Assembly: GCA_027624315.1 (NCBI GenBank)
Contig: JAQBXX010000005.1
Span: 51 to 64,050 of the forward strand
Direction of reading: 5' to 3'
Source: Pseudomonadota bacterium
Lineage (GTDB): Bacteria; Pseudomonadota; Gammaproteobacteria; SURF-13
DNA: 64,000 nucleotides
Both the position numbers and the translations under genes were made by a program. The notes below the pieces were generated by a model, which worked only from the letters and a program-made list of their open reading frames with translations, was not told where the DNA came from and did no database searches. Each line of letters opens with the position of its first letter. The stretch's first letter is position 1. Below are positions 2,493-53,658 of this stretch, piece by piece.

Positions 2493-3134
2493 ATGTCGCG
2501 TAAATTACTTATCGCACTGATCGCTGGCATTGCCTTGCCCGGCATGGTCATGGCACAGCAGGATGTGGCCGGCACGGCCACGCCACCCAAGAACCATGAG
2601 ACCGCCCTGTTTGCCGGTGGCTGTTTCTGGTGTACGGAATCGGATTTCGACAAGATACCCGGCGTGATAGAAACGGTTTTCGGATATGCCGGTGGGCAAA
2701 AGCTCAATCCTACTTACGAAGAGGTGTCCAACGGTGGCACCGGCCACGCAGAAGTGGTGCAGGTGACCTATGACCCTGCAAAAGTCAGCTACAAGGAGCT
2801 GGTAGACAAGTTTTGGCGCACCATCGACCCCACGACTCCGGATCGCCAATTTTGCGATAGCGGCAGCCAGTACCGCAGCGCTATCTTCTATAGCACCCCG
2901 CAACAAAAGGCCATCGCGGAACAATCAAAGACGGCGCTCGAAAAAAACAAGCCGTTTAAGGGGAAGATAGTCACCGAAATCACGCAGGCCACGACGTTCT
3001 ATGCCGCGGAAGAGTATCACCAGAATTTTTACAGAAAGAACCCCGTACGCTACAACTATTACCGCTTCAGCTGCGGCCGCGACCAGCGCCTGGAGCTGTT
3101 ATGGGGAAAGGAACAGGGTCGGGCGTCGCACTGA
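2493..3134 (+). CDS. msrA: Peptide-methionine (S)-S-oxide reductase MsrA with Sec signal
   Basis: AGGCFWC, PTYEEV, TGHAEVVQV, QYRSAIF, AEEYHQ; hydrophobic N-terminal leader. Confidence 0.95.
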   Translation: MSRKLLIALIAGIALPGMVMAQQDVAGTATPPKNHETALFAGGCFWCTESDFDKIPGVIETVFGYAGGQKLNPTYEEVSNGGTGHAEVVQVTYDPAKVSYKELVDKFWRTIDPTTPDRQFCDSGSQYRSAIFYSTPQQKAIAEQSKTALEKNKPFKGKIVTEITQATTFYAAEEYHQNFYRKNPVRYNYYRFSCGRDQRLELLWGKEQGRASH

Positions 3135-3153
3135 CCCATCACGACCCGAATAG

Positions 3154-3230
3154 TGGCGCGCCCTAGAGGATTCGAACCTCTGACCTTTGGGATCGGAACC
3201 CAACGCTCTATCCAACTGAGCTAAGGGCGC
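3154..3230 (-). tRNA. tRNA-Arg(CCG)
   Basis: Minus strand GCGCCCTTAGCTCAGTTGGATAGAGCG TTGGG-TTCCGAT-CCCAA AGGTCAGAGGTTCGAATCCTCTAGGGCGCGCCA; 77-nt cloverleaf with encoded CCA. Confidence 0.95.
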
Positions 3231-3264
3231 AAGTAAAGCAAGTCGCGAGTAGCGCCTCGGCTCG

Positions 3265-3343
3265 CCCCCTTCTCCCCCTGGGAGAAGGGATGGGGATGAG
3301 GGCGTCTACCCTCCTTCTGCCCTTGGGAAGGGATGAGGGAGGG
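3265..3343. repeat. Two tandem CCCTTCTCCC/GGGAGAAGGG-type hairpin repeats
   Basis: CCCTTCTCCCCCTGGGAGAAGGGATGGGGATGAGGG followed by a degenerate second copy; related copies at 39603 and 53704. Confidence 0.6.
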
Positions 3344-3415
3344 CGACTAGCATAGCCACTCTGCCGCCCCCCGTCTATTCGGCCAGCTTGATCTGCGCCC
3401 GGCTGAGAATTTCTG

Positions 3416-5609: not shown

Positions 5610-8549
5610 ATGCGCGCGCCCTCCGATCATCGCCACCCTGTTCCGGAAGCACTGCGTGAAGTTGCGCTGCAACGCTGGTCTCAATTTCTGGAGGCGGCAC
5701 AGGTTGCGGGCGTAACGCCGCCGTCGCATCCCGAGCTGCTCGCGGTGCTGCATCGCGTGTGGGCGTGCAGCGATTTCGTGGCGCACGCCTGCATCCGGAA
5801 CCCGGTGCTGTTGTGCGACCTATTGAGCAGCAGCGATCTGCTGCGCGAGTATTGCGCGCAGCAGTATGCAATCACGCTGGAGGCTGCGCTCGCGGAGGTG
5901 CATGACGAAGCAGCGCTGGGTGACGTGCTGCGCCGTCTGCGGCGACGCGAGATGGTACGCATCGCCTGGCGCGAGCTTGCGGGCTGGGCGCAACTCGACG
6001 AAACCCTGCGCGATCTCTCCAGCCTCGCCGAGGCCTGTGTGGATGGCGCGCTGCGACGGCTGCACGCATGGCAGGCGCAGGACTACGGTACGCCGCGCGA
6101 TAGCGAGGGTGTGGCACAAGCGCTGGTGGTGATCGCCATGGGCAAACTCGGCGGCGCGGAGTTGAATTTTTCCTCCGATATCGACCTCATCTTTGCCTAT
6201 CCCGCCGACGGCGAGACGCGCGGCAAGCGTCGCCGCATCAGCAATGAAGAATATTTCCTGCGCCTCGGCCAGCGCCTGATCGGTGCGCTCAGCGCCGCCA
6301 CCGCAGAGGGGTTTGTGTTCCGCGTGGATGTCAGGCTGCGTCCGTTCGGCGACAGCGGGCCGCTGAGTGCCAGTTTTTCCGCGCTGGAAGATTATTACCA
6401 GACGCACGGACGCGAGTGGGAGCGCTATGCCTGGATCAAGGCGCGCGTGGTGGGTGGCGACCGCGCGGCGGGTGCGCGGCTGCTCGATACGTTGCGCCCG
6501 TTCGTCTACCGCCGCTATCTCGATTTCGGCGCGTTCGAGTCGCTGCGCGACATGAAGCGCATGATTCAGGAAGAGACTGCGCGCAAAGGCATTGAAGACA
6601 ATATCAAGCTGGGGCCGGGCGGCATACGCGAGATCGAATTCATCGCCCAGGCATTTCAGTTGATACGCGGCGGGCGCAACCCGGACCTGCAAATCCGCGC
6701 CACGCTCGCCGTGCTCGAGCAGCTTTCACGTCATGGCTACTTGCCGGAGCAGGTGACGCGCGAGTTGACGGCTTCGTATGTATTTCTGCGCCGCACGGAG
6801 AACCGCCTGCAAGAGGTCGCCGATGAACAGACCCATCGGTTGCCGGTGAGCGACTTCGAGCGTGCGCGGCTCGCCTTTGCCATGGGTTACCGTGACTGGG
6901 CGGCGTTCGATCAGGCGCTGCACGCACACCGGGCGCAGGTGCAGAGCCATTTTGAGCAGGTGTTTGCGGTGTCTCAGGCGATGGCAGAGGGCGCGTCCGG
7001 CATCGCCACTGATCTGTCGCGCCTATGGCAGGCGGTGCTGACACAGGATGAGGCGCTACGGATGTTAACTACACACGGCTTTACCGACGCCGCCGAGGCG
7101 TGGCGGCGCATTGTGGTGCTGCGTGATTCTTTTGCGTATCGCGCACTCAGTGTGCAGGGCCGTGGGCGTATGGATCGTTTGATGCCGCTGGTGCTCGGCG
7201 CGGTGACGACTCAGAGCCCGGATCATGCCGCAGCGGAAGTGCACGTCACGCTGGCGCGTGTACTGAACCTGCTCGAAACGATCGCACGCCGCACGCCGTA
7301 TCTGGCGCTGCTCGCAGAACATCCGCTGGCGCTTACGCAACTGGTGCAGTTATGCGCCGCCAGTCCGTGGATCGCCGCTCTGCTGACGCGCCAGCCATTG
7401 CTGCTGGATGAATTGCTCGACCCGCGCACGCTGCATGCGCCGCTTACGCGCACGTCACTCGAGCATGAACTGCAGCGCAGTCTGCAGGCCGCTCACGCGC
7501 ATGATCTGGAGCAGCAGATGGATGCGCTGCGTCATTTCCGTCAGGCGCAGATGTTGCGCGTCGCCGCGACCCAGATTGCCCGTCCGGAGGATACGCTTGC
7601 GGTGTGCGCCCAGTTATCCGACATCGCCGAGGTGGTGTTGCAGGCGGTGCTGGAACTCGCGTGGCGTCAGATGGTGGCAAAACACGGCCGTCCGCGTTAC
7701 CGGGAAAGCGGACAACTCAAAGATGCCGGCTTTGCCGTCGTGGGTTACGGCAAACTGGGCGGGCGTGAATTGAGCTATAGCTCTGACCTCGACCTCGTAT
7801 TCGTGCATGATAGCGGCGACGATGATGCCCGCACGGCAGGCCCGCATCAACTCGATAACGCGGTGTTTTTCACGCGCCTGGGACAGCGCATGATTCATCT
7901 GCTTAACACGCGCACCCCGGCGGGGGTGTTGTATGAGGTGGATATGCGTCTGCGGCCCAGTGGCGGTTCGGGCCTGCTGGTGGCGAGCCTGGCCGCATTC
8001 GCCGATTATCAGCGTAACGCGGCCTGGATCTGGGAGCATCAGGCGCTGGTGCGCGCGCGCGTGGTGGCGCAGCATTCCGCCCATGAGTCGGCCATCGCCG
8101 CGAATTTTTCCGCGCTGCGGAGTGAAATCATGGGCTACGCGCGCGAACGTGCCACGCTGCGCACCGAGGTGTCTGCCATGCGTGCGCGCATGCATGCAGC
8201 CCACGCTGGCGGCACGGCGGGGTGCTTCGACCTCAAACACGATGCCGGCGGTATCGCAGATATCGAATTTATGGTTCAATATGCGGCTTTATTGCATACG
8301 CATGAGACGCCGGAATTGGCGCGCAGTACACAGACTGCGGACATGCTGTCTCATTTGTCAGCCGCCGGGAAAATTACGGCGCAGCAGGCGCAGGTGCTTG
8401 AGCAGGCCTACCGCGCCTACCTCGGCGCCGTGCATCGGCTCGCGCTGCAAGAGGCATCTGCCAGTGTCCCGGAAACGGAGTTTTCGGAGCATCGTGCAGC
8501 AGTGGTACGCGTCTGGCGGGAATTATTTGAAGAAAACAACAAAGGGTAG
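5610..8549 (+). CDS. glnE: Glutamine synthetase adenylyltransferase/adenylyl-removing enzyme
   Basis: Two nucleotidyltransferase halves (MGKLGGAELNFSSDIDL; YGKLGGRELSYSSDLDL), VDxRLRP, KLGPGGIREIEF. Confidence 0.97.
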   Translation: MRAPSDHRHPVPEALREVALQRWSQFLEAAQVAGVTPPSHPELLAVLHRVWACSDFVAHACIRNPVLLCDLLSSSDLLREYCAQQYAITLEAALAEVHDEAALGDVLRRLRRREMVRIAWRELAGWAQLDETLRDLSSLAEACVDGALRRLHAWQAQDYGTPRDSEGVAQALVVIAMGKLGGAELNFSSDIDLIFAYPADGETRGKRRRISNEEYFLRLGQRLIGALSAATAEGFVFRVDVRLRPFGDSGPLSASFSALEDYYQTHGREWERYAWIKARVVGGDRAAGARLLDTLRPFVYRRYLDFGAFESLRDMKRMIQEETARKGIEDNIKLGPGGIREIEFIAQAFQLIRGGRNPDLQIRATLAVLEQLSRHGYLPEQVTRELTASYVFLRRTENRLQEVADEQTHRLPVSDFERARLAFAMGYRDWAAFDQALHAHRAQVQSHFEQVFAVSQAMAEGASGIATDLSRLWQAVLTQDEALRMLTTHGFTDAAEAWRRIVVLRDSFAYRALSVQGRGRMDRLMPLVLGAVTTQSPDHAAAEVHVTLARVLNLLETIARRTPYLALLAEHPLALTQLVQLCAASPWIAALLTRQPLLLDELLDPRTLHAPLTRTSLEHELQRSLQAAHAHDLEQQMDALRHFRQAQMLRVAATQIARPEDTLAVCAQLSDIAEVVLQAVLELAWRQMVAKHGRPRYRESGQLKDAGFAVVGYGKLGGRELSYSSDLDLVFVHDSGDDDARTAGPHQLDNAVFFTRLGQRMIHLLNTRTPAGVLYEVDMRLRPSGGSGLLVASLAAFADYQRNAAWIWEHQALVRARVVAQHSAHESAIAANFSALRSEIMGYARERATLRTEVSAMRARMHAAHAGGTAGCFDLKHDAGGIADIEFMVQYAALLHTHETPELARSTQTADMLSHLSAAGKITAQQAQVLEQAYRAYLGAVHRLALQEASASVPETEFSEHRAAVVRVWRELFEENNKG

Positions 8550-8615
8550 GTCGGATCAAGCGTAGCGGATCCGACTGCTGTGTCGGTTCCGCACTGCGTG
8601 CTTGAGCCGACCTAC
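8546..8615. repeat. Inverted REP doublet (family REP-B; REPIN/BIME-like)
   Basis: GTAGGTCGGATCAAGCGTAGCGGATCCGAC (8546-8575) and an inverted copy ending TTGAGCCGACCTAC (8582-8615); related copies at 41409, 50797 and 51662. Confidence 0.85.
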
Positions 8616-40791: not shown

Positions 40792-41412
40792 ATGTCATCT
40801 CCTTATCGCAACCGAGCCCTTGCCCTCGCCGGAATCTTACAGGCCTGCCGCCTCGTACAGCAGGTGGCGCGCAAAAACATGGCTGACAACGTGGCGTTGG
40901 AAGCCAGCCTGGCGAGCGTGTTCAACATAGACGCAGACACTACCGAGGCCATCTACGGCGGGGTGGAGGGTGTGCGTCCGGGACTGAAAATATTGCAGGA
41001 ACAACTGGAAAAAAGCGGTGCGCCCCGAGACATCGAACTTACACGTTACGTCATTGGCGTCATGCACCTGGAGCGTCAGCTTGCCAGCCAGCCGGAGATG
41101 TTGGAACGCATACGCAAAGGCATCGAAAGTGCTGAACCGCAAAGGCAAGCGCTCGGTGCCGCCCACACTGATGTGATCGAGCAGCTAGCGGAAATCTACA
41201 GCGCGACAATCAGCACCCTGACGCCACGCATCATTGTGCAGGGCGAGGAAGGTTATCTCTCCAGCCCGGACAACGCCAACAAGGTGCGCGCACTGCTGCT
41301 CGCCGCCATGCGCTCGGCGGTGCTGTGGCGCCAGGTCGGCGGACGACGCTGGCAGTTATTGTTTGTGCGCGGTGCGTTGGCGCGTGAAGTGGCGGCGATG
41401 TTACAGGTGTAG
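40792..41412 (+). CDS. hflD: High-frequency lysogenization protein HflD
   Basis: ALALAGILQA, TISTLTPRIIVQG, RALLLAAMRSAVLWRQVGG. Confidence 0.93.
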   Translation: MSSPYRNRALALAGILQACRLVQQVARKNMADNVALEASLASVFNIDADTTEAIYGGVEGVRPGLKILQEQLEKSGAPRDIELTRYVIGVMHLERQLASQPEMLERIRKGIESAEPQRQALGAAHTDVIEQLAEIYSATISTLTPRIIVQGEEGYLSSPDNANKVRALLLAAMRSAVLWRQVGGRRWQLLFVRGALAREVAAMLQV

Positions 41413-41462
41413 GTCGGATCAAGCCTGTCCTGAGCGAAATCGAAGGGCGTAGAGGATCCGAC
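41409..41462 (+). repeat. REP-B copy with a 24-bp internal insertion
   Basis: GTAGGTCGGATCAAG[CCTGTCCTGAGCGAAATCGAAGGG]CGTAGAGGATCCGAC. Confidence 0.8.
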
Positions 41463-47481: not shown

Positions 47482-47697
47482 TAGTGTAGTGCGTCATTAC
47501 TCTTGGAGCTTATCAAGTCAGCTCGACATCGCGGTCTTAAATCCCCCGGCCGTTCGGCAAGCTCACGGCCACCCCATTTGCAAAGGGGGTCGAGCGTAGC
47601 GAGGGAGGATTTGGAGCCGCGCTGCCAACGAATACAGCGCATCATTATCGTTTCGCATCGTCAACATAAGATTCAATAATTGCGAAGCAGTCCACTA
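47482..47697. mobile_element. Degenerate MITE-like element with nested hairpins
   Basis: Imperfect inverted ends TAGTGTAGTGC and GCAGTCCACTA; internal AAATCC...GGATTT palindrome. Confidence 0.45.
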
Positions 47698-48321
47698 GCG
47701 CACCAGCACCTCGGTGATCCCACGCAGGATAAATTCCATCGCCACGGCAAGCAGCAGCATGCCCATGATGCGCGTGGTGACGCGCGCGCCGGTCGGCCCC
47801 AGTTTTTCAAACAAGGGGTCGGCCATGCGGAACATGATGTAAAGCACGAGTGCGGTCACCAGTATCACGCCGCTGAGTTGCGCGTGCCCGGCCAGGCTTG
47901 CGCCTTGCTGCTGGGCGTACAGGACCACTGCGGTGATGGTGCCGGGGCCGGCGAGCATGGGAATGCCGAGCGGCACGATGGAGATGTCCTCGCGGTGCGC
48001 GGACTCCTCGCCTTGCACGCCCTGCACGCGCGAGGGTGTGGCGTGCAACATCGACCACGCCATGGATGCGAGGATCAGGCCGCCCGCTACCTGGAAGCTG
48101 GGCAGGCTGATGCCAATGAGGGTAAGCAGGTACATGCCGCCGTATTGAAAGAACAGCAGCGTCACCACCACGGTGACAATCATGCGCAATAAAACCTTGC
48201 GCCGCTGTGCGGCTGCCATGTCATGCGTAAGGGAAAGATAAAGCGGCATCACGTCGAACGGCGCGAGTACCACCAGCAACGAGACGAATTGCTTGATAAG
48301 CAGTATGGTGTCGAATTGCAT
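47695..48321 (-). CDS. MarC family membrane protein
   Basis: FQVAGGLIL, VPLGIPMLAGPG, TRIMGMLL. Confidence 0.92.
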   Translation of the reverse strand: MQFDTILLIKQFVSLLVVLAPFDVMPLYLSLTHDMAAAQRRKVLLRMIVTVVVTLLFFQYGGMYLLTLIGISLPSFQVAGGLILASMAWSMLHATPSRVQGVQGEESAHREDISIVPLGIPMLAGPGTITAVVLYAQQQGASLAGHAQLSGVILVTALVLYIMFRMADPLFEKLGPTGARVTTRIMGMLLLAVAMEFILRGITEVLVR

Positions 48322-49313
48322 CAGGCTGTTTCCCGCATGTTGCCTGCATTATAGGATGCAAGCACGCCCTCAAGCCAGGCAGGAATGCGCTCCTCCAGCC
48401 AGTAACACGCCCGCCAGGGTGCGCTTCCGTAAACAAAGCCCACGTGTCCACCGTGCCCGGACAACTCCAGGGTCACGTGCGGCGAGAGTTCGGCCTGTGT
48501 GGGGGTTGCCTTGCGCGTCAGGAAAGGGTCATCGGCGGCATGCAGCACCAGCGTGGGAATGCCGATCCGCCCGAGATATTGACGACAGCTTGATTGCGTA
48601 TAGTAGTCGTCCACCCCGGCGAATCCATGCAGCGGCGCGGTGACGGCATCGTCGTAAGTGCGCAAGGTGCGCAGGCGATCAAGATCGCCGATGTCGAGCG
48701 GCAGCCTCATGTGTCTTGATTTTTCGCGTACCGTATCGCGCAGGCAACGCAGCAGATGCCGTTGATAAAATCTGGAAAGGCCGCGTTGTAGCCGCAGCAC
48801 CGACTCATTCATGTCGAACGGCACGGACACCGCCACAGCGCAGGTGAGCGGCGCGTGCTGCCCCTGCTCACCCAGCCATTTCAACAACACATTGCCGCCG
48901 AGCGAATAGCCGACCGCGGCGAGTGGCGTGTGCGGTTCGCGTGCGTGCAGGACATTGACCAGCGTATTGAGATCACCCGTCTCTCCGCCGTGGTAAAAGC
49001 GCGGTAGCCGATTCGGTTCGCCGCTGCAACCGCGAAAGTGCATCAGTACGGCGCGATAGCCGCGTTGATGGAGGGCGCGCAAAATCCCGCGTGCATAGCT
49101 GGAGTTGCTCGAACCTTGCAGGCCGTGCAGGACTATCACCACCGGTCCGGATGCGCCGGTAGTCCAGTCCAGATCGACAAAGTCACCATCCGGCAGTTCC
49201 AGCCGCTCGCGCCGCAACGCGGTATTTTCAGCACGGCGCACCACGTTCGCCCACAGCGTTTGCAGGTGCGCATTACGCAGCCACCAGGCGGGTATGAAGG
49301 GGTTGTTCAGCAC
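48321..49313 (-). CDS. YheT-family alpha/beta hydrolase
   Basis: NAHLQT, DGDFVDLDW, HGLQG, GYSLGG, ADDPF, GGHVGF. Confidence 0.92.
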   Translation of the reverse strand: MLNNPFIPAWWLRNAHLQTLWANVVRRAENTALRRERLELPDGDFVDLDWTTGASGPVVIVLHGLQGSSNSSYARGILRALHQRGYRAVLMHFRGCSGEPNRLPRFYHGGETGDLNTLVNVLHAREPHTPLAAVGYSLGGNVLLKWLGEQGQHAPLTCAVAVSVPFDMNESVLRLQRGLSRFYQRHLLRCLRDTVREKSRHMRLPLDIGDLDRLRTLRTYDDAVTAPLHGFAGVDDYYTQSSCRQYLGRIGIPTLVLHAADDPFLTRKATPTQAELSPHVTLELSGHGGHVGFVYGSAPWRACYWLEERIPAWLEGVLASYNAGNMRETA

Positions 49314-49343
49314 GCGCGTTATCGCCGGTTTATGCAGAGGGTC

Positions 49344-49373
49344 ATCGGAACCGCTACGCTCAACCCATTCTGC
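49344..49373 (-). repeat. Chimeric REP (REP-A 5' half joined to REP-B 3' half)
   Basis: Minus strand reads GCAGAATGGGTTG AGCGTA GCGGTTCCGAT. Confidence 0.7.
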
Positions 49374-50163
49374 GATCTGGCCTGTGGAGCCGACGGCGAT
49401 GCAGCATCCAGGCCACTTGCACCGTGGCTACAGCGGCGAGCAAATGCTTGATGGCGTGGCCGCTCACTATTCCACCGAACTGATAGACAGTGCTGTCCAT
49501 GACCTCAAACATCTTGGCTAGCACATACCAGCCAGCCACCAGCAGCAAAGCCCAGCCGTGACTGTAGCGCGGAGGGTGCAGCAGCAATAATAGCGGTATA
49601 AGCAGCAGGGGTAGCAACTGCACCAGAATATAGGGTCGCAGGTCGCCACGTCCCCATGTTTCGCTCAGGTACCAATAAATCACACTGGCTACTGCGTAAA
49701 CCAACATGGGCAGCAAGCTCCACGCAGCAAGTCGCGCCGACACCCTTTCGGCCAGCACAGCAGCAAACAGGCAGATAAACGACAGTGTGATGGGCAAGCG
49801 ATCCCATACCAGACGCAGATTGTCAGGCTGCCAGTGATAGTAGGCCGAGCCAAAAAACGTCAGCAACACACCCAGCAAAAAGCCGGCCCACACCACCCGC
49901 TCGAACCGGGTGCTTATTATAAAGCGCGGCAAGCGCCGCAGCCCCCACAGTCCCACCAGCAAAAACGGCAGATTAGAGAGCACATTCTGTGCGTTGGGCA
50001 ACCACCACCAAGACCGCGTATCAGCAAAGTTGTTATAACCGGCGATTTGTGGAATGCGTCCGTAGAAAAACAGGGCAATCACTACCGCCGCCGCCACAGC
50101 CAGCAATAACGCCGCACGCGCGCCCGCAGGCCAATTCCTCACATGATTTAAAATAGAATGCAT
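49360..50163 (-). CDS. Alkaline ceramidase-like (CREST superfamily) membrane protein
   Basis: NFADTR, NVLSNLPF, GSAYYH, WDRLP, GDLRPY, SGHAIKH; about 7-8 transmembrane segments. Confidence 0.82.
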   Translation of the reverse strand: MHSILNHVRNWPAGARAALLLAVAAAVVIALFFYGRIPQIAGYNNFADTRSWWWLPNAQNVLSNLPFLLVGLWGLRRLPRFIISTRFERVVWAGFLLGVLLTFFGSAYYHWQPDNLRLVWDRLPITLSFICLFAAVLAERVSARLAAWSLLPMLVYAVASVIYWYLSETWGRGDLRPYILVQLLPLLLIPLLLLLHPPRYSHGWALLLVAGWYVLAKMFEVMDSTVYQFGGIVSGHAIKHLLAAVATVQVAWMLHRRRLHRPDRRMG

Positions 50164-50171
50164 TTAGTTTT

Positions 50172-50203
50172 GTAGGATGGGTTGAGCGTAGCGATACCCA
50201 TCA
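50172..50203 (+). repeat. REP-A flanking the RAYT gene
   Basis: GTAGGATGGGTTGAGCGTAGCGATACCCATCA: GTAG plus imperfect hairpin. Confidence 0.9.
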
Positions 50204-50207
50204 TGGC

Positions 50208-50738
50208 TCATTCACCAAAACCGTCCTCAATGCCATCTTCACCCCATGCCCAATCCGCCGCATACCGTCCTCGGCGAACATGATGGTGAAATGACGAATA
50301 AGGCCAATCCTGTACCCGTTTCACATGGCCGTGTTTGACGGGGTTGAAGTGAATATAATCCACATGGCGCTCGAAATCGCATTCGTCGCGGATAGTATGC
50401 TCCCAGTAGCGCCGTTGCCATATTCCCCGCTCTTCCTTCGACAGACGGCTGTTTGATCGTCTTTCACCCGACGCCAAGGCCCGCGAGAAATTTGTTTTAA
50501 TTAATCGCCAGCGCAGGGCGTAGTCACAATCGTCTTGAGGCAGAGTACACACGGCGTGAAGATGATCCGGTAGCACCACAATAGCGTCTATCGAAAATGG
50601 GTGATGACGCCGCACCGCACGAAAAGCAGCGCGTAAAAGATCGATATGTTCGGTAAGCAACTGCACACTACGCTGCGCGAGATTAACCGTGAAGAAATAA
50701 GTGCCACCCGGAACAAAGTTGCGCCGATAATTTGCCAT
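50208..50738 (-). CDS. REP-associated tyrosine transposase (RAYT/TnpA-REP, HUH Y1)
   Basis: YFFTVN, PDHLH (HUH), WQRRYWEHTIRD, YIHFNPVKHG, DWPYSS; flanked by inverted REPs; alternative start 50753. Confidence 0.93.
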   Translation of the reverse strand: MANYRRNFVPGGTYFFTVNLAQRSVQLLTEHIDLLRAAFRAVRRHHPFSIDAIVVLPDHLHAVCTLPQDDCDYALRWRLIKTNFSRALASGERRSNSRLSKEERGIWQRRYWEHTIRDECDFERHVDYIHFNPVKHGHVKRVQDWPYSSFHHHVRRGRYAADWAWGEDGIEDGFGE

Positions 50739-50760
50739 TGATACATTATACAAGCATCAT

Positions 50761-50792
50761 TGATGGGTATCGCTGCGCTCAACCCATCCTAC
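50761..50792 (-). repeat. REP-A (inverted) flanking the RAYT gene
   Basis: Reverse complement of 50172-50203 at 31/32. Confidence 0.9.
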
Positions 50793-50796
50793 GAGT

Positions 50797-50815
50797 TACG
50801 CTTGATCCGACCTAC
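50797..50815 (-). repeat. 5' half of REP-B
   Basis: Minus strand GTAGGTCGGATCAAGCGTA, identical to 8546-8564. Confidence 0.85.
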
Positions 50816-51641
50816 TTGACTGCAGCACGTCGTTAGATGCCATTGTCATCGAATTTCTCACGAAAGTCCTTCAGGACCTGCTCGTAATTCGTAATACGAA
50901 GCCACGTCAGTGTTCCGAGCAGCGCGCCTTGGCAGGCCTTCAGCTCGCCCAGCCGTGGCTCTGCTTGTTGCGTCAAACGCCCGACCAAGGGAAGAACGCT
51001 GCCGACGAGGTAGGTCAGCTCGCTCACCACTAGGAAGAGCCCGGGTATCGACAACTGAGGGCCGACGTAGACACGAGCCCCCTCAAGATCGTGGGACAGG
51101 AACGCGGACGCTGGCGTGACGTGGATCCCAAGTTCGCAGAGAACTCTGTAGGCGGGCTCGTCGACGATCGGCCTTTCATCGCGCGCTTCCACCAACCGAC
51201 GCACGGCCGCTGGACCATATCGACTCATTCGTTCGGAGCGTGAGGATGCCGTCCAGGTGCCCAGTTCCACCGGGGCGAGAAAAAAGAGCTGGAGGAGGTT
51301 CGCCAACTCGCCAGCACTGCGGATCACTCCAATCGCTTCGTCATAGTAGCCGAGATAGGCCAAGCGTAAGGCTGCCGTTGCCGCGTTGGCGAGACGGCGC
51401 ACGAGGTTCTCCACCGCATGGCCGGCGTGGCGACAGCCCCATGCACAGGACGCGATCTGAGCAAGCAACGACAGGCCATCTCCGAGCCGCGTGAGCATCT
51501 CAGGTCCGCGCACTCCAAGCTGCCCTTTCGCATCAAGTTGGAGAGCGGCCTGCTGGGCAGCCTCCTCAAGGCGTCGGATGTTATCGATGAGTTCGCGGCC
51601 TTTCAGAAAGCCGTCCGGCTGCTCTATCATGTGCGTCTAAC
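50816..51641 (-). mobile_element. Orphan integron-type gene cassette with truncated attC
   Basis: GTTAGAC-GCAC-ATG at the start; the stop lies within ATCTAAC, followed by GACGT-GCTGCAGTC. Confidence 0.65.
50833..51630 (-). CDS. Hypothetical alpha-helical protein (DUF5677/HEPN-like motif pattern)
   Basis: GYYDEAIGVIRSAGE and YRVLCELGIH motifs; fills the cassette exactly. Confidence 0.7.
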   Translation of the reverse strand: MIEQPDGFLKGRELIDNIRRLEEAAQQAALQLDAKGQLGVRGPEMLTRLGDGLSLLAQIASCAWGCRHAGHAVENLVRRLANAATAALRLAYLGYYDEAIGVIRSAGELANLLQLFFLAPVELGTWTASSRSERMSRYGPAAVRRLVEARDERPIVDEPAYRVLCELGIHVTPASAFLSHDLEGARVYVGPQLSIPGLFLVVSELTYLVGSVLPLVGRLTQQAEPRLGELKACQGALLGTLTWLRITNYEQVLKDFREKFDDNGI

Positions 51642-51661
51642 GTATATTCGACATCAGTTAG

Positions 51662-51690
51662 GTAGGTCGGATCAAGCTAGCGGATCCAAC
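51662..51690 (+). repeat. REP-B copy
   Basis: GTAGGTCGGATCAAGC-TAGCGGATCCAAC, abutting the acs stop codon. Confidence 0.85.
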
Positions 51691-53658
51691 TCATGCCTTC
51701 CCCTGCAACTGCAGCAGGATCGCCTCGTTCTCCAGCGTCGAGGTGTCTTGGGTGATGGCCTCACCGGCGGCGATGGAGCGCAGCAGGCGGCGCATGATTT
51801 TGCCGGAGCGGGTTTTGGGGAGGTTGTCGGCGTAGCGGATGTCGTCGGGGCGGGCGATGGGGCCGATCTGTTCGGTGACCCAGGCGCGTAGTTCTTTGGT
51901 GAGCGTTTCGTCCACGCCGCCCGCGGGGCGTGCGCCGCGTAACACGACGTAGGCGAATACGGCTTCGCCTTTAATCTCGTCGGGTTTGCCGACCACGGCG
52001 GCTTCGGCGACGCGCGGATGCGCGACGAGGGCGGATTCGATCTCCATGGTGCCGAGGCGGTGGCCGGATACTTTCAGTACGTCGTCGGCGCGGCCCATGA
52101 TCCAGAAATAGCCGTCTGCGTCGCGGTGCGCGGTGTCGCCGGCGACGTAGTACTTGTTGCTGAATTTCTTCCAGTAGGTGTCCAGGTAGCGCTGCTCGTC
52201 GCCCCAGATACCGCGCAGCATGAACGGCCAGGGTTTCTTGATGACGAGATAGCCGCCCTGGTTGGGCGCGGTAATGCTGTTGCCTTCTTCGTCCACGACG
52301 TCCGCCGCGATGCCGGGCAGCGGCAGGGTGCAGGAACCGGGCTTGGTGGGCATGGCGCCGGGGATGGGGGCGATCAGGTGCGCGCCGGTTTCGGTTTGCC
52401 ACCAGGTGTCCACGATCGGGCAGCGCTCATGGCCGATGTGTTTGCGATACCACATCCACGCCTCGGGGTTGATCGGTTCGCCCACGGTGCCGAGCAAACG
52501 CAGCTTCGATAAATCATATTTCGCTGGAATTTCGTCGCCCAGTTTCATCAGGCCGCGTATTGCGGTGGGCGCGGTGTAGAAAATAGTTACGTTGTGGCGC
52601 TGGCAGATGTCCCAGAAACGTCCGCCGTCGGGAATGGTCGGCGCGCCTTCGTACATCAGCGTCGTCGCGCCGGTCGCAAGCGGGCCGTAGGTGACGTAGC
52701 TGTGGCCCGTCACCCAGCCGACATCGGCGGTGCACCAGAAGATGTCGTCGTCGTGGATGTCGAACACCCACTGCATGGTGACGATGGTGCCGAGCAGATA
52801 GCCCGCGCTCGCATGCTGGATGCCCTTGGGTTTGCCGGTGGAGCCGGAGGTGTAGAGCAGAAATAATGGGTGCTCGCTCTCGACCCACACCGGCTCGCAC
52901 TGGTCGGCAACGTTTTTCACGGCATCGTGCCACCATGCATCACGCCCCGCCTGCATGTTGACCTGCTGGCCGGCGCGTTGCAACACGATCACGTTCTCAA
53001 TGCTGGGGCAGCCTTTGCTCAATGCCAGATCGGCGGCGGCCTTGAGCTCGATGACCTTGCCGCCGCGTGTGCCGCCGTCGGCGGTGATAAGCATTCTTGC
53101 TCCGGCGTCTTCGATGCGGTCCTTCAGCGACTGCGCGGAGAAGCCGCCGAACACGACCGAATGAATGGCGCCGATGCGTGCGCACGCCTGCATGGCGACG
53201 ACGACCTCCGGCACCATCGGCATGTAGATCACCACGCGGTCGCCTTTTTTAATACCCTTGGCCTTGAGCGCATTGGCAAAGCGGCATACGTCACGATGCA
53301 GCTCGGCGTAACTCACGCGGCGGACGTCGCCTTGCTCGCCTTCGAAAATAATGGCGGTTTTGTCGGCCCTGTCCTTGAGGTTGCGATCAAGGCAGTTGTA
53401 GGAAACATTCAGCAGTCCGTCGTCAAACCAGCGGTAGTGCGGCGCATTGCTGCTGTCGAGAATGTTAGTGAATGGCTTGTGCCAGATGATTTCGTTGCGC
53501 GCGAGGGTGGCCCAGAAGTTTTCGTGGTCTGCATCGCCCTGCTGTTGAAGTGCGACCAACTGTTCCCTGCTTTTGACGCGCGCATGCGTGGAAAAATCGG
53601 GTGACGGCGCAAACAGCCGTTCTTCGTGCAGGGTGGATTCGAGGTTTTTGGTGGTCAC
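51691..53658 (-). CDS. acs: Acetyl-CoA synthetase
   Basis: [40 protein letters not shown]. Confidence 0.97.

Follow-up and report, generated by a model that had tools for sequence, protein, structure and literature searches.

RAYTs (REP-associated tyrosine transposases) are domesticated transposase genes, regarded as non-jumping relatives of transposases that are vertically inherited and usually found in the same gap. That view would be challenged if a RAYT locus were shown to have inserted cleanly together with cargo. In the REPtron or REPIN-RAYT system a RAYT gene has flanking inverted REPs, as described by Nunvar et al. 2010 (PMC2817692), Corneloup et al. 2021 (PMC8266576) and Bertels and Rainey (bioRxiv 10.1101/2021.07.10.451892). 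The window analysed here, the whole stretch of 64,000 nucleotides, contains a RAYT gene (RAYT-A) and a ceramidase-like gene lying between two anomalous REPs, and the original prediction took the two genes to be a mobile unit that had entered a resident REP of another family. The question raised by the locus is whether the interval 49344-50815 is the footprint of such a move or a product of rearrangement in place. The genome concerned (G000) is a MAG of 53 contigs, in which repeats may be under-assembled, and with 19 relatives it makes up the family set of 20 genomes.

Anatomy of the RAYT-A locus

The features of the locus are listed in Table 1. The acs gene is full length in relatives with 79-93% identity, and the MarC-family gene follows the hydrolase in every relative checked. 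Identity of the acs C-terminus was tried as a detector of transfer and rejected as uninformative, being 92-95% in seven of nine relatives (82% in G013 and G016, over a 288-aa stretch). A contig built independently from run X1, which is probably the source sample of the genome, covers 47600-51816 with 0 differences, so the junctions described below are not an assembly join.

Table 1. Features of the acs-hydrolase gap and its flanks in G000 (window positions)
Feature	Position	Strand	Remarks
MarC-family membrane protein	47695..48321	-	right-hand neighbour of gap, conserved; Pfam MarC 164 bits
YheT-type alpha/beta hydrolase	48321..49313	-	conserved flank; Pfam Abhydrolase_1 80 bits; NCBIfam PRK10985 335.5 bits (cutoff 267)
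Hybrid REP	49344..49375	-	REP-A left arm, shared core and REP-B-like (mosaic) right arm
Ceramidase-like polytopic membrane protein, 267 aa	49360..50163	-	Pfam Ceramidase 24.5 bits, sub-threshold
REP-A copy 3' of RAYT-A	50172..50203	+	GTAG head on plus strand; inverted pair I1
RAYT-A, REP-associated tyrosine transposase, 181 aa, intact ORF	50208..50753	-	NF047646, Pfam Y1_Tnp
REP-A copy 5' of RAYT-A	50761..50792	-	GTAG head on minus strand; preceded by ACTC
Left half of REP-B	50797..50815	-	ends after AGCGTA in loop; 19/19 as family consensus
hyp265, hypothetical protein, 265 aa	50833..51630	-	lineage-specific; between inverted REP-B copies
REP-B(1), slightly decayed	51662..51690	+	immediately past acs stop; fold -2.7 kcal/mol
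Acetyl-CoA synthetase (acs)	51691..53658	-	left-hand flank, conserved; Pfam AMP-binding 306 bits, ACAS_N 65 bits

Judged by its sequence, RAYT-A is a bona fide RAYT with a canonical inverted REP pair. The protein scores 207.3 bits on NCBIfam NF047646 (cutoff 80) and 23.1 bits on Pfam Y1_Tnp, and falls short of the IS200 model NF033573 (17.4 bits, cutoff 55). It aligns with the E. coli TnpAREP 4er8_A (E 3.4e-48) across the HUH and Tyr regions, the alignment taking in PDHLH against PEHMH and HVDYIHFNP against HVDYIYINP, motifs which we take to hold the catalytic residues. Its GC3 is 0.49 as against 0.70-0.82 in the flanks. The REP-A pair I1 consists of 32-nt arms that are 97% complementary, lie 557 nt apart and each fold with -6.3 kcal/mol. 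RAYT-A has a single match in G000, and its cognate REP is not a high-copy one there, the REP-A 16-mer being found twice at no more than one mismatch, a count that in so fragmented a MAG may be depressed by under-assembly of repeats. The REP-B family has 17 copies in G000 at the same tolerance, and its own RAYT (RAYT-B) is absent from that genome.

The only ORFs with family matches in 49344-50815 are those of RAYT-A and the ceramidase-like protein, and neither a DDE transposase nor terminal inverted repeats are present there. The match of the latter protein to Pfam Ceramidase is below the gathering score of 32.5 and covers residues 59-166 only, NCBIfam and PADLOC gave no match, and the term ceramidase-like should be read as a lead and not as family membership. 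For hyp265 there was no match in Pfam, NCBIfam or PADLOC; it was found in one of 60 relatives, at 30% identity only. Look-alikes drawn from a protein atlas were all hypothetical proteins, DUF5677 and DUF6988 each being annotated for 10% of them. The inverted REP-B copies on either side of it have a common 7-nt flank (inverted repeat I4). The contig depth of hyp265 is zero in runs X3 and X4, which do contain RAYT-A (91%) and the ceramidase-like gene (98-99%), and hyp265 therefore appears to be a recent addition beside the half REP-B.

The half REP-B and the hybrid REP

Both junctions were found with the letters and at the positions predicted (49344-49360 and 50797-50815), and the rebuilding of a REP-B by joining their outer flanks was also borne out, a script count giving 28/30 identity to 8546-8575 of the window. 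On the right, the minus strand from 50815 to 50797 gives the first 19 nt of REP-B with 0 mismatches, that is the GTAG head, the left arm and the loop as far as AGCGTA, and is followed by ACTC and then by a complete REP-A on the same strand. The piece is a true REP that has been truncated, and its break falls at the loop position where the hybrid is joined. The left-half word GGATCAAGCGYA has 10 copies in the genome, and the REP-B right arm follows it in nine, the exception being the copy at 50797-50815. On the left, the hybrid (49375 to 49344, minus strand), which supplies the ceramidase-like ORF with its stop and its last five codons, reads as a REP-A left arm with two head mismatches, the full 9-nt core and an 11-mer that agrees with the REP-B right arm in 9/11 positions. 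The REP-A inner 12-mer occurs three times in the genome, always at the RAYT-A locus, and the right-arm 11-mer exactly once. The element behaves, as had been proposed, like an A/B recombinant joined in the shared core; its right arm, however, is a mosaic, with six of eight positions as in REP-B, five of 8-9 as in REP-A and all eight carrying the letter of one or the other.

The 6-bp TACGCT at the two junctions had been described as a duplication. It is not a target-site duplication; TACGCT (AGCGTA) is found at both because it is part of the REPs' own loop core, the 9-nt AGCGYAGCG, which is common to REP-A, REP-B and other repeats and occurs 134 times. Neither broken element retains the structure of its family: intact REP-A folds with -6.3 kcal/mol and intact REP-B with -8.5 (z -4.9), while the hybrid gives -2.3 kcal/mol (z +1.0) with no hairpin and the half REP-B no fold. 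Each junction is unique within G000, and among the 20 family genomes the hybrid 26-mer and the 26-mer of the half-REP-B junction are both confined to G000, being absent from the 19 relatives at up to three mismatches. This supports junctions specific to the lineage, and their absence from the relatives suggests that they are younger than the residence of RAYT-A in the gap. The half REP-B is intact at 19/19 positions and the hybrid has four deviations, which hints at unequal ages but does not reach significance.

The same gap in relatives and the origin of the junctions

RAYT-A/REP-A sequence also lies in the acs-hydrolase gap of at least three other genomes, which belong to two further genera. 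In G011, the last 55 nt or so of RAYT-A are followed, colinear with G000, by REP-A, AAAACT and the ceramidase-like gene (93 nt at 81.7%, with a continuation of 881 nt at 76%); in G009, AGTTTT, REP-A and the RAYT-A 3' end (62 nt at 90.3%) lie upstream of an EamA transporter gene and the hydrolase. The REP-A at 50172..50203 has in both an ortholog that is likewise flanked by AGTTTT, and that at 50761..50792 has a homologous REP in G016, where REP-A, the promoter region and the first 18 RAYT-A codons (105 nt, 80%) are fused to the C-terminus of RAYT-B, with REP-B following. All these RAYT-A orthologs are remnants, of 18-61 codons. G017 retains half of a REP-A, 16 nt long and likewise flanked by CTC, which breaks off immediately before the core. 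These four genomes make RAYT-A an old resident of the gap, and the evidence mostly confirms the standard vertical picture of RAYTs, since the gene stays in one gap across genera. The idea that RAYT-A and the ceramidase-like gene arrived together as mobile DNA is not supported in view of the earlier presence of RAYT-A/REP-A in G011, G009 and G016, nor is the gene's supposed role as a passenger in view of G009, where EamA takes its place. Ceramidase-like orthologs adjoin acs with 86% identity in G012 and 77-78% in G011; the ortholog is patchy, occurring in three of the 20 family genomes, and neither it nor RAYT-A is present in the four genomes of the same genus.

It is also clear that the gap is hypervariable. 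Between RAYT-A and the hydrolase lies a ceramidase-like gene in G000 and G011 and EamA in G009; the gap of G001 spans 2.5 kb with a 432-aa ORF, and that of G002 holds a 230-aa ORF and a Sel1 protein. G003 has an intact RAYT-B with flanking REP-B, and G007 and G014 have REP-B alone between acs and the hydrolase. REP-B(1) is orthologous in G003, G012, G014 and G016 and decayed in G007. In G016 there is in addition a half REP-A beginning exactly at TACGCT, beside which the acs 3' end is duplicated.

The empty site that a recent insertion would predict (hyp265, intact REP-B, hydrolase) was sought and was not found in any of the 11 relatives whose gap was read. Four sequencing runs were examined as Logan contigs, not as reads, and rare variants such as an empty site or a circle junction are not visible in contigs. 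The X3 and X4 pieces cease to match G000 exactly at the core on both sides, which shows some structural difference from G000; the hydrolase-side contig reads up to ...CGCTACGCT at the REP. The X3/X4 pieces at 49352/49360 have 10-11 unmatched end letters. Joints running from 50200 to 50762 (17-33 other letters between, side of 23) were rejected, being REP-A doublets that derive from elsewhere or from other organisms. When the hydrolase N-terminus, extended upstream, was used as a protein query to recover those contig ends as partial proteins, no match exceeded 85% identity and none covered the REP. Searches with the hydrolase yielded 80 metagenome loci, the best at 70% identity and none a close relative; 14 of them have an acs-like gene (E <= 1e-8) directly upstream, and in these 14, to which the tabulation was confined, there was no ceramidase-like or RAYT match. 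Flank-pattern searches to link two G003 contigs gave one unrelated REPIN locus and otherwise no match.

The explanation that we favour, with roughly even confidence, is that 49344-50815 belongs to a REPtron nest in which recombination at REP loops has left scars, and is not a discrete mobile element. RAYT-A with its two inverted cognate REP-A hairpins would be a long-standing resident, kept vertically between acs and the hydrolase, in a gap which also housed a second REPtron (RAYT-B with REP-B) and in which unrelated genes (ceramidase-like, EamA, hyp265, an HTH gene, Sel1) are gained and lost lineage by lineage. The half REP-B and the hybrid would be rearrangement scars with breakpoints in the 9-nt core common to both families, the hybrid being a REP-A x REP-B deletion joint, and would probably have arisen when the G000 lineage gained hyp265 and lost RAYT-B. 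On this view the ceramidase-like gene is a neighbour and not RAYT cargo. Other REPs broken at or beside the core in the same gap, in G016 and G017, speak for this reading. Since there is no assembled gap from any relative closer than ~88% hydrolase identity, we infer the order of these events, as we do the making of the scars by host recombination at REP loops.

Some observations sit less well with recombination scars. The break lies at a single loop position in both REP-B pieces, which complement each other exactly as halves, and when joined seven of eight stem positions would still pair, including one G-T; one event would for that reason be simpler than two. A single-step placement confined to the G000 lineage, which we consider possible though doubtful, would have put a 1.44-kb segment (REP-A, RAYT-A, REP-A, the ceramidase-like gene and a half REP-A) into the loop of one resident REP-B, namely that 5' of RAYT-B in G003 and G012, by homology-facilitated or microhomology recombination of a relative's DNA or by RAYT-catalysed strand transfer. 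It would account for the 28/30 identity of the joined halves, for the break after AGCGTA in both pieces, for the restriction of both junctions to G000 and for the divergence of the X3/X4 contigs at the core on both sides. The G000 right arm and its flank GACCC resemble the right end and flank GACAC of the REP-B 5' of RAYT-B in G003 and G012, which fits the split of a single REP-B(2), and the absence of RAYT-A and the ceramidase-like gene from the four same-genus genomes, with the patchiness of the latter, would also fit re-acquisition. REP loops are moreover known targets of insertion sequences, such as ISPpu9, which inserts in REPs (PMC8450116). The difficulty is that the unit would have had to leave and re-enter the same gap, RAYT-A/REP-A being already there in G009, G011 and G016; it exists in one copy with no empty site in the 11 relatives read, and the slight hint of different ages for the two pieces also tells against one event. 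A simple crossover between cores should yield the reciprocal chimera, which the order REP-B left half, AGCGTA, ACTC, full REP-A does not represent. The cleavage described for TnpAREP (PMC8266576), moreover, takes place not in the loop but at CT or CA dinucleotides that lie outside the hairpin.

A bolder version would make the shared core AGCGYAGCG an attachment point, so that a whole REPtron with its adjacent gene integrated into the loop of an other-family REP and REP loops served as cassette exchange sites between related genomes, possibly with RAYT cutting in the loop; if true, a RAYT locus would here have left the first footprint of relocation with cargo, but we think this version improbable. 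Least probable of all, and by our estimate very unlikely, is that there is no chimera, 49344-49375 being a decayed third REP-A (81% identical over its full 32 nt, 2 nt of flank among them, its right arm agreeing with REP-A at 5 of 8-9 positions and with REP-B at 6/8) and the half REP-B an unrelated truncated REP 3' of hyp265, complementary by chance, as might suit the non-significant likeness of piece and flank to the hydrolase-side REP-B of G003 (306/2000 shuffles reach the score). Against this reading, of the four right-arm positions that differ from REP-A three carry exactly the REP-B letter, for which the chance with three random substitutions is below 1% by our own arithmetic. A REP-B right arm matching in at least 6/8 positions follows only two of the 124 cores genome-wide without a REP-B left arm, the hybrid being one of the two, and the half REP-B is broken at the same loop position.

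Comparison with known systems

With IS200/IS605 elements carrying passenger genes the interval has in common a Y1 HUH enzyme and hairpins near the ends, and an insertion without target duplication beside a short specific word is conceivable. It differs in the poor score of RAYT-A on the IS200 model, in hairpins that are inverted and not co-oriented, and in its one copy without an empty site in 11 gaps, where an autonomous transposon would be expected to show several copies or a precise empty site. REP-targeting insertion sequences were reportedly treated by Tobes and Pareja in 2006, and IS1397 is one of them. Like IS1397 and ISPpu9, the interval has foreign DNA lodged in the loop of a REP, with both joints marked by a short repeat; unlike them it has neither DDE transposase nor terminal inverted repeats, and its 6-nt repeat is the REPs' own core and not an insertion-made duplication. 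The locus is a caution that complementary REP halves need not point to transposition.

The likeness to a REPtron lies in the match of RAYT-A to the NCBIfam equivalog model and to the E. coli TnpAREP structure sequence, in two inverted flanking REPs with GTAG head and hairpin, and in its single copy. Unlike a typical REPtron, the cognate REP-A is nearly absent elsewhere in G000 (two copies and the hybrid), REP-B is abundant (17 copies) without RAYT-B, two RAYT families have occupied one gap and one flank of the RAYT-A locus bears an other-family REP broken in the loop. Among its less common features, the locus documents two RAYT families nested in one hypervariable gap and a REP family left without its RAYT.

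Shyamala et al. are said to have found in 1990 that REPs act as join-points of recombination, for example in tandem duplications in Salmonella. With such REP-mediated chromosomal rearrangements the locus shares breakpoints within REPs, a hybrid REP at a junction and, in G016, an acs 3' duplication beside a half REP; it differs in that the partners are two REP families with only a 9-nt core in common and that the breakpoints cluster at one loop position. It also documents REP loops as recurrent breakpoints together with a hybrid of two REP families, and is an example of REPs shaping local gene turnover.

Broken REP elements around RAYT-A

All genes in the 47.6-53.7 kb interval are carried on the minus strand. 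RAYT-A matches E. coli TnpAREP (4er8_A) with an E value of 3.4e-48, and its two REP-A copies pair as inverted repeats of 32 nt with 97% complementarity, spaced 557 nt apart; an inverted REP pair around a RAYT is described as the canonical arrangement (PMC2817692). The RAYT-A gene (50208-50753) has a GC of 0.509 and a GC3 of 0.49, against 0.56-0.62 and 0.65-0.82 in neighbouring genes.

Genes and repeats between MarC and acs in the host genome, G000
Feature	Position	Strand	Remarks
MarC	47695-48321	minus	
YheT-type alpha/beta hydrolase	48321-49313	minus	
Hybrid REP	49344-49375		overlaps stop of ceramidase-like gene
Ceramidase-like membrane protein	49360-50163	minus	Pfam Ceramidase 24.5 bits, cutoff of 32.5 not reached
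REP-A	50172-50203		
RAYT-A	50208-50753	minus	NF047646 207.3 bits, cutoff 80
REP-A	50761-50792		inverted orientation
REP-B left half	50797-50815		
hyp265	50833-51630	minus	hypothetical gene, 265 aa
REP-B	51662-51690		slightly decayed, directly past acs stop
acs	51691-53658	minus	

The junction letters and coordinates of the original prediction were correct, and a scripted join of the two flanks rebuilt a REP-B identical at 28/30 positions to that at 8546-8575, which forms a doublet with a second, inverted REP-B. TACGCT, which had been taken for a 6-bp duplication, proved instead to be part of a 9-nt loop core, AGCGYAGCG, common to REP-A, REP-B and other repeats. The hybrid had been described as an A/B chimera; its right arm is a mosaic with an A or B letter at every position, agreeing with REP-B at 6/8 positions and with REP-A at 5/8-9, and the element overall is 81% identical to REP-A. 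Intact REP-A and REP-B have folding energies of -6.3 and -8.5 kcal/mol; the hybrid does not fold (-2.3 kcal/mol, z +1.0), nor does the half REP-B.

Chimeric and half REPs were found to be uncommon in G000. The REP-B right arm follows GGATCAAGCGYA in nine of its 10 genome copies, the sole exception being 50797-50815. The inner 12-mer of REP-A occurs three times in the genome, each time at the RAYT-A locus, and the 11-mer of the hybrid right arm has a single exact occurrence. Only two of 124 loop cores without a preceding REP-B left arm, the hybrid included, continue into sequence that matches the REP-B right arm at 6/8 positions or more. An independently built contig from sequencing run X1, probably the source sample, spans 47600-51816 with 0 differences, so the joins are not an artefact of one assembler.

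Only one other irregular REP-B was seen (contig C3:41459, window 41409-41462), its two arms parted by ~24-29 additional letters in the loop. Here too a REP-B loop contains foreign sequence, and the interruption is a few bases off the break position at 50797-50815. The same loop core recurs in another repeat family (…GGGGGTCGAGCGYAGCGAGGGGGGATTTG…), which is found at several genomic sites, one of them just upstream of MarC (window about 47571-47615; C3:47643). A further family, GTAGGTTGGGTTAGGCGCG…, is also abundant, with 10 copies or more. An identical stretch of ~50 nt that includes the loop core is present at or close to five contig ends (C2:42, C7:59, C33:46, C42:9067 and C44:19439) and is probably an unassembled multi-copy element.

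The acs/hydrolase gap among relatives

The family comprises 20 species genomes, all MAG-like, and the gap between acs and the hydrolase was read in 11 relatives of G000. Of these, G001, G002 and G003 share its genus, and G007, G009, G011, G012, G013, G014, G016 and G017 belong to other genera. RAYT-A and REP-A occupied this gap before the split of three genera. In G011, acs is followed by ~50 nt and the last ~55 nt of RAYT-A, then by REP-A, AAAACT, the ceramidase-like gene and the hydrolase; the arrangement is colinear with G000 over 93 nt at 81.7% and then 881 nt at 76%. G009 retains the 3' end of RAYT-A together with REP-A and the AGTTTT flank seen in G000 (62 nt, 90.3%), followed by an EamA transporter in place of the ceramidase-like gene and then the hydrolase. 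The gene adjoining RAYT-A thus differs between genomes, so no fixed link joins the ceramidase-like gene to the RAYT.

The gap has also been home to RAYT-B. Within the 20 family genomes this gene is full-length only in the same-genus relative G003, at the same gap (locus L034), in the order acs, REP-B, contig break, REP-B end, RAYT-B, REP-B, hydrolase; it scores 174.9 bits against NF047646 and is 43-48% identical to RAYT-A. Remnants persist in G016 and G012, and G000 has no RAYT-B. REP-B itself is present in 18/20 genomes, with 17 copies in G000 at up to 1 mismatch, and is therefore a largely orphaned REP family. REP-A-like 16-mers occur in 10/20 genomes, 1-3 times each.

Elsewhere the gap is varied. 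Of two same-genus genomes, G001 holds a low-GC stretch of 2.5 kb containing a 432-aa ORF, and G002 a 230-aa ORF with a Sel1 protein. G007 and G014 have REP-B sequence only, and G013 has a spacer of 83 nt, assessed by its length. One contig of G012 (1.7 kb) carries acs, an intact REP-B and the ceramidase-like gene, within which it ends; a second carries EamA and the hydrolase, and a third ends with an intact REP-B and a RAYT-B 5' remnant. In G008, G010, G015 and G018, compared by tblastn only, there was no acs, ceramidase-like or RAYT match within 1.5 kb of the hydrolase; four others had no usable gap, the hydrolase being unmatched in G004, G005 and G006 and lying at a contig start in G019. In 14 of 80 more distant metagenome loci the hydrolase has an acs-like gene immediately upstream, with no ceramidase-like or RAYT match. 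The unpublished genome G058 enters only three tallies and one paralog match, and no claim is based on it.

Origin of the junctions

Neither junction 26-mer of G000 was found in the 19 relatives, with up to 3 mismatches allowed, so RAYT-A has resided in the gap for longer than the junctions have existed. hyp265 had no family match outside G000 except one at 30%. The contigs of runs X3 and X4 leave it uncovered but do contain RAYT-A (36 differences over 405 nt) and the ceramidase-like gene (3 differences over 235 nt; 5 over 237 nt). Inverted REP-B sequence brackets hyp265 (50800-50822 and 51655-51677), reaching 7 nt past the GTAG heads with 5/7 flanking letters alike, and may mark how the gene entered. 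Given young junctions, a lineage-restricted hyp265 and a resident RAYT-A, the half REP-B and the hybrid are read as probable scars left by rearrangements that broke within REP loops; they probably arose as hyp265 was gained and RAYT-B lost. Comparable loop-level breaks occur in the same gap of two relatives. In G016, acs and REP-B are followed by a half REP-A that begins exactly with TACGCT, a second copy of the acs 3' end, REP-A, a fused pseudo-RAYT, REP-B and MarC, the pseudo-RAYT joining 18 N-terminal RAYT-A codons to a 61-residue RAYT-B-like C-terminus (locus L130, G016:C15:7000-13500, about 3000-3400). In G017 the left half of a REP-A, 16 nt long and with the CTC flank of G000, breaks off immediately ahead of the core, and an HTH gene comes next.

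That the segment was instead placed in one step, within the G000 lineage, into a REP-B lying 5' of RAYT-B is possible though rather unlikely. In its favour, the REP-B pieces are complementary halves broken at a single position; GACCC comes after the right arm, and GACAC after the REP-B 5' of RAYT-B in G003 and G012; both RAYT-A and the ceramidase-like gene are absent from the four same-genus genomes; and on each side X3/X4 contig pieces (49084-49360 and 49352-49586) lose their match to G000 at the core. Such a step would more likely be recombination of a relative's DNA than RAYT-driven transposition. The TnpAREP cleavage described in PMC8266576 falls outside the hairpin, at CT or CA, and no reciprocal chimera is seen at the left junction.

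With rearrangement in REP loops as the preferred reading, the sequence observation of the original prediction stands, and its interpretation is partly supported. The long residence of RAYT-A in one gap agrees with the picture of RAYTs given in bioRxiv 10.1101/2021.07.10.451892, where they are reported to keep the same extragenic space and to be inherited vertically, with no evidence of self-transposition. The locus belongs to a known type of system, the REPtron, and lies in a gap that is unusually busy.
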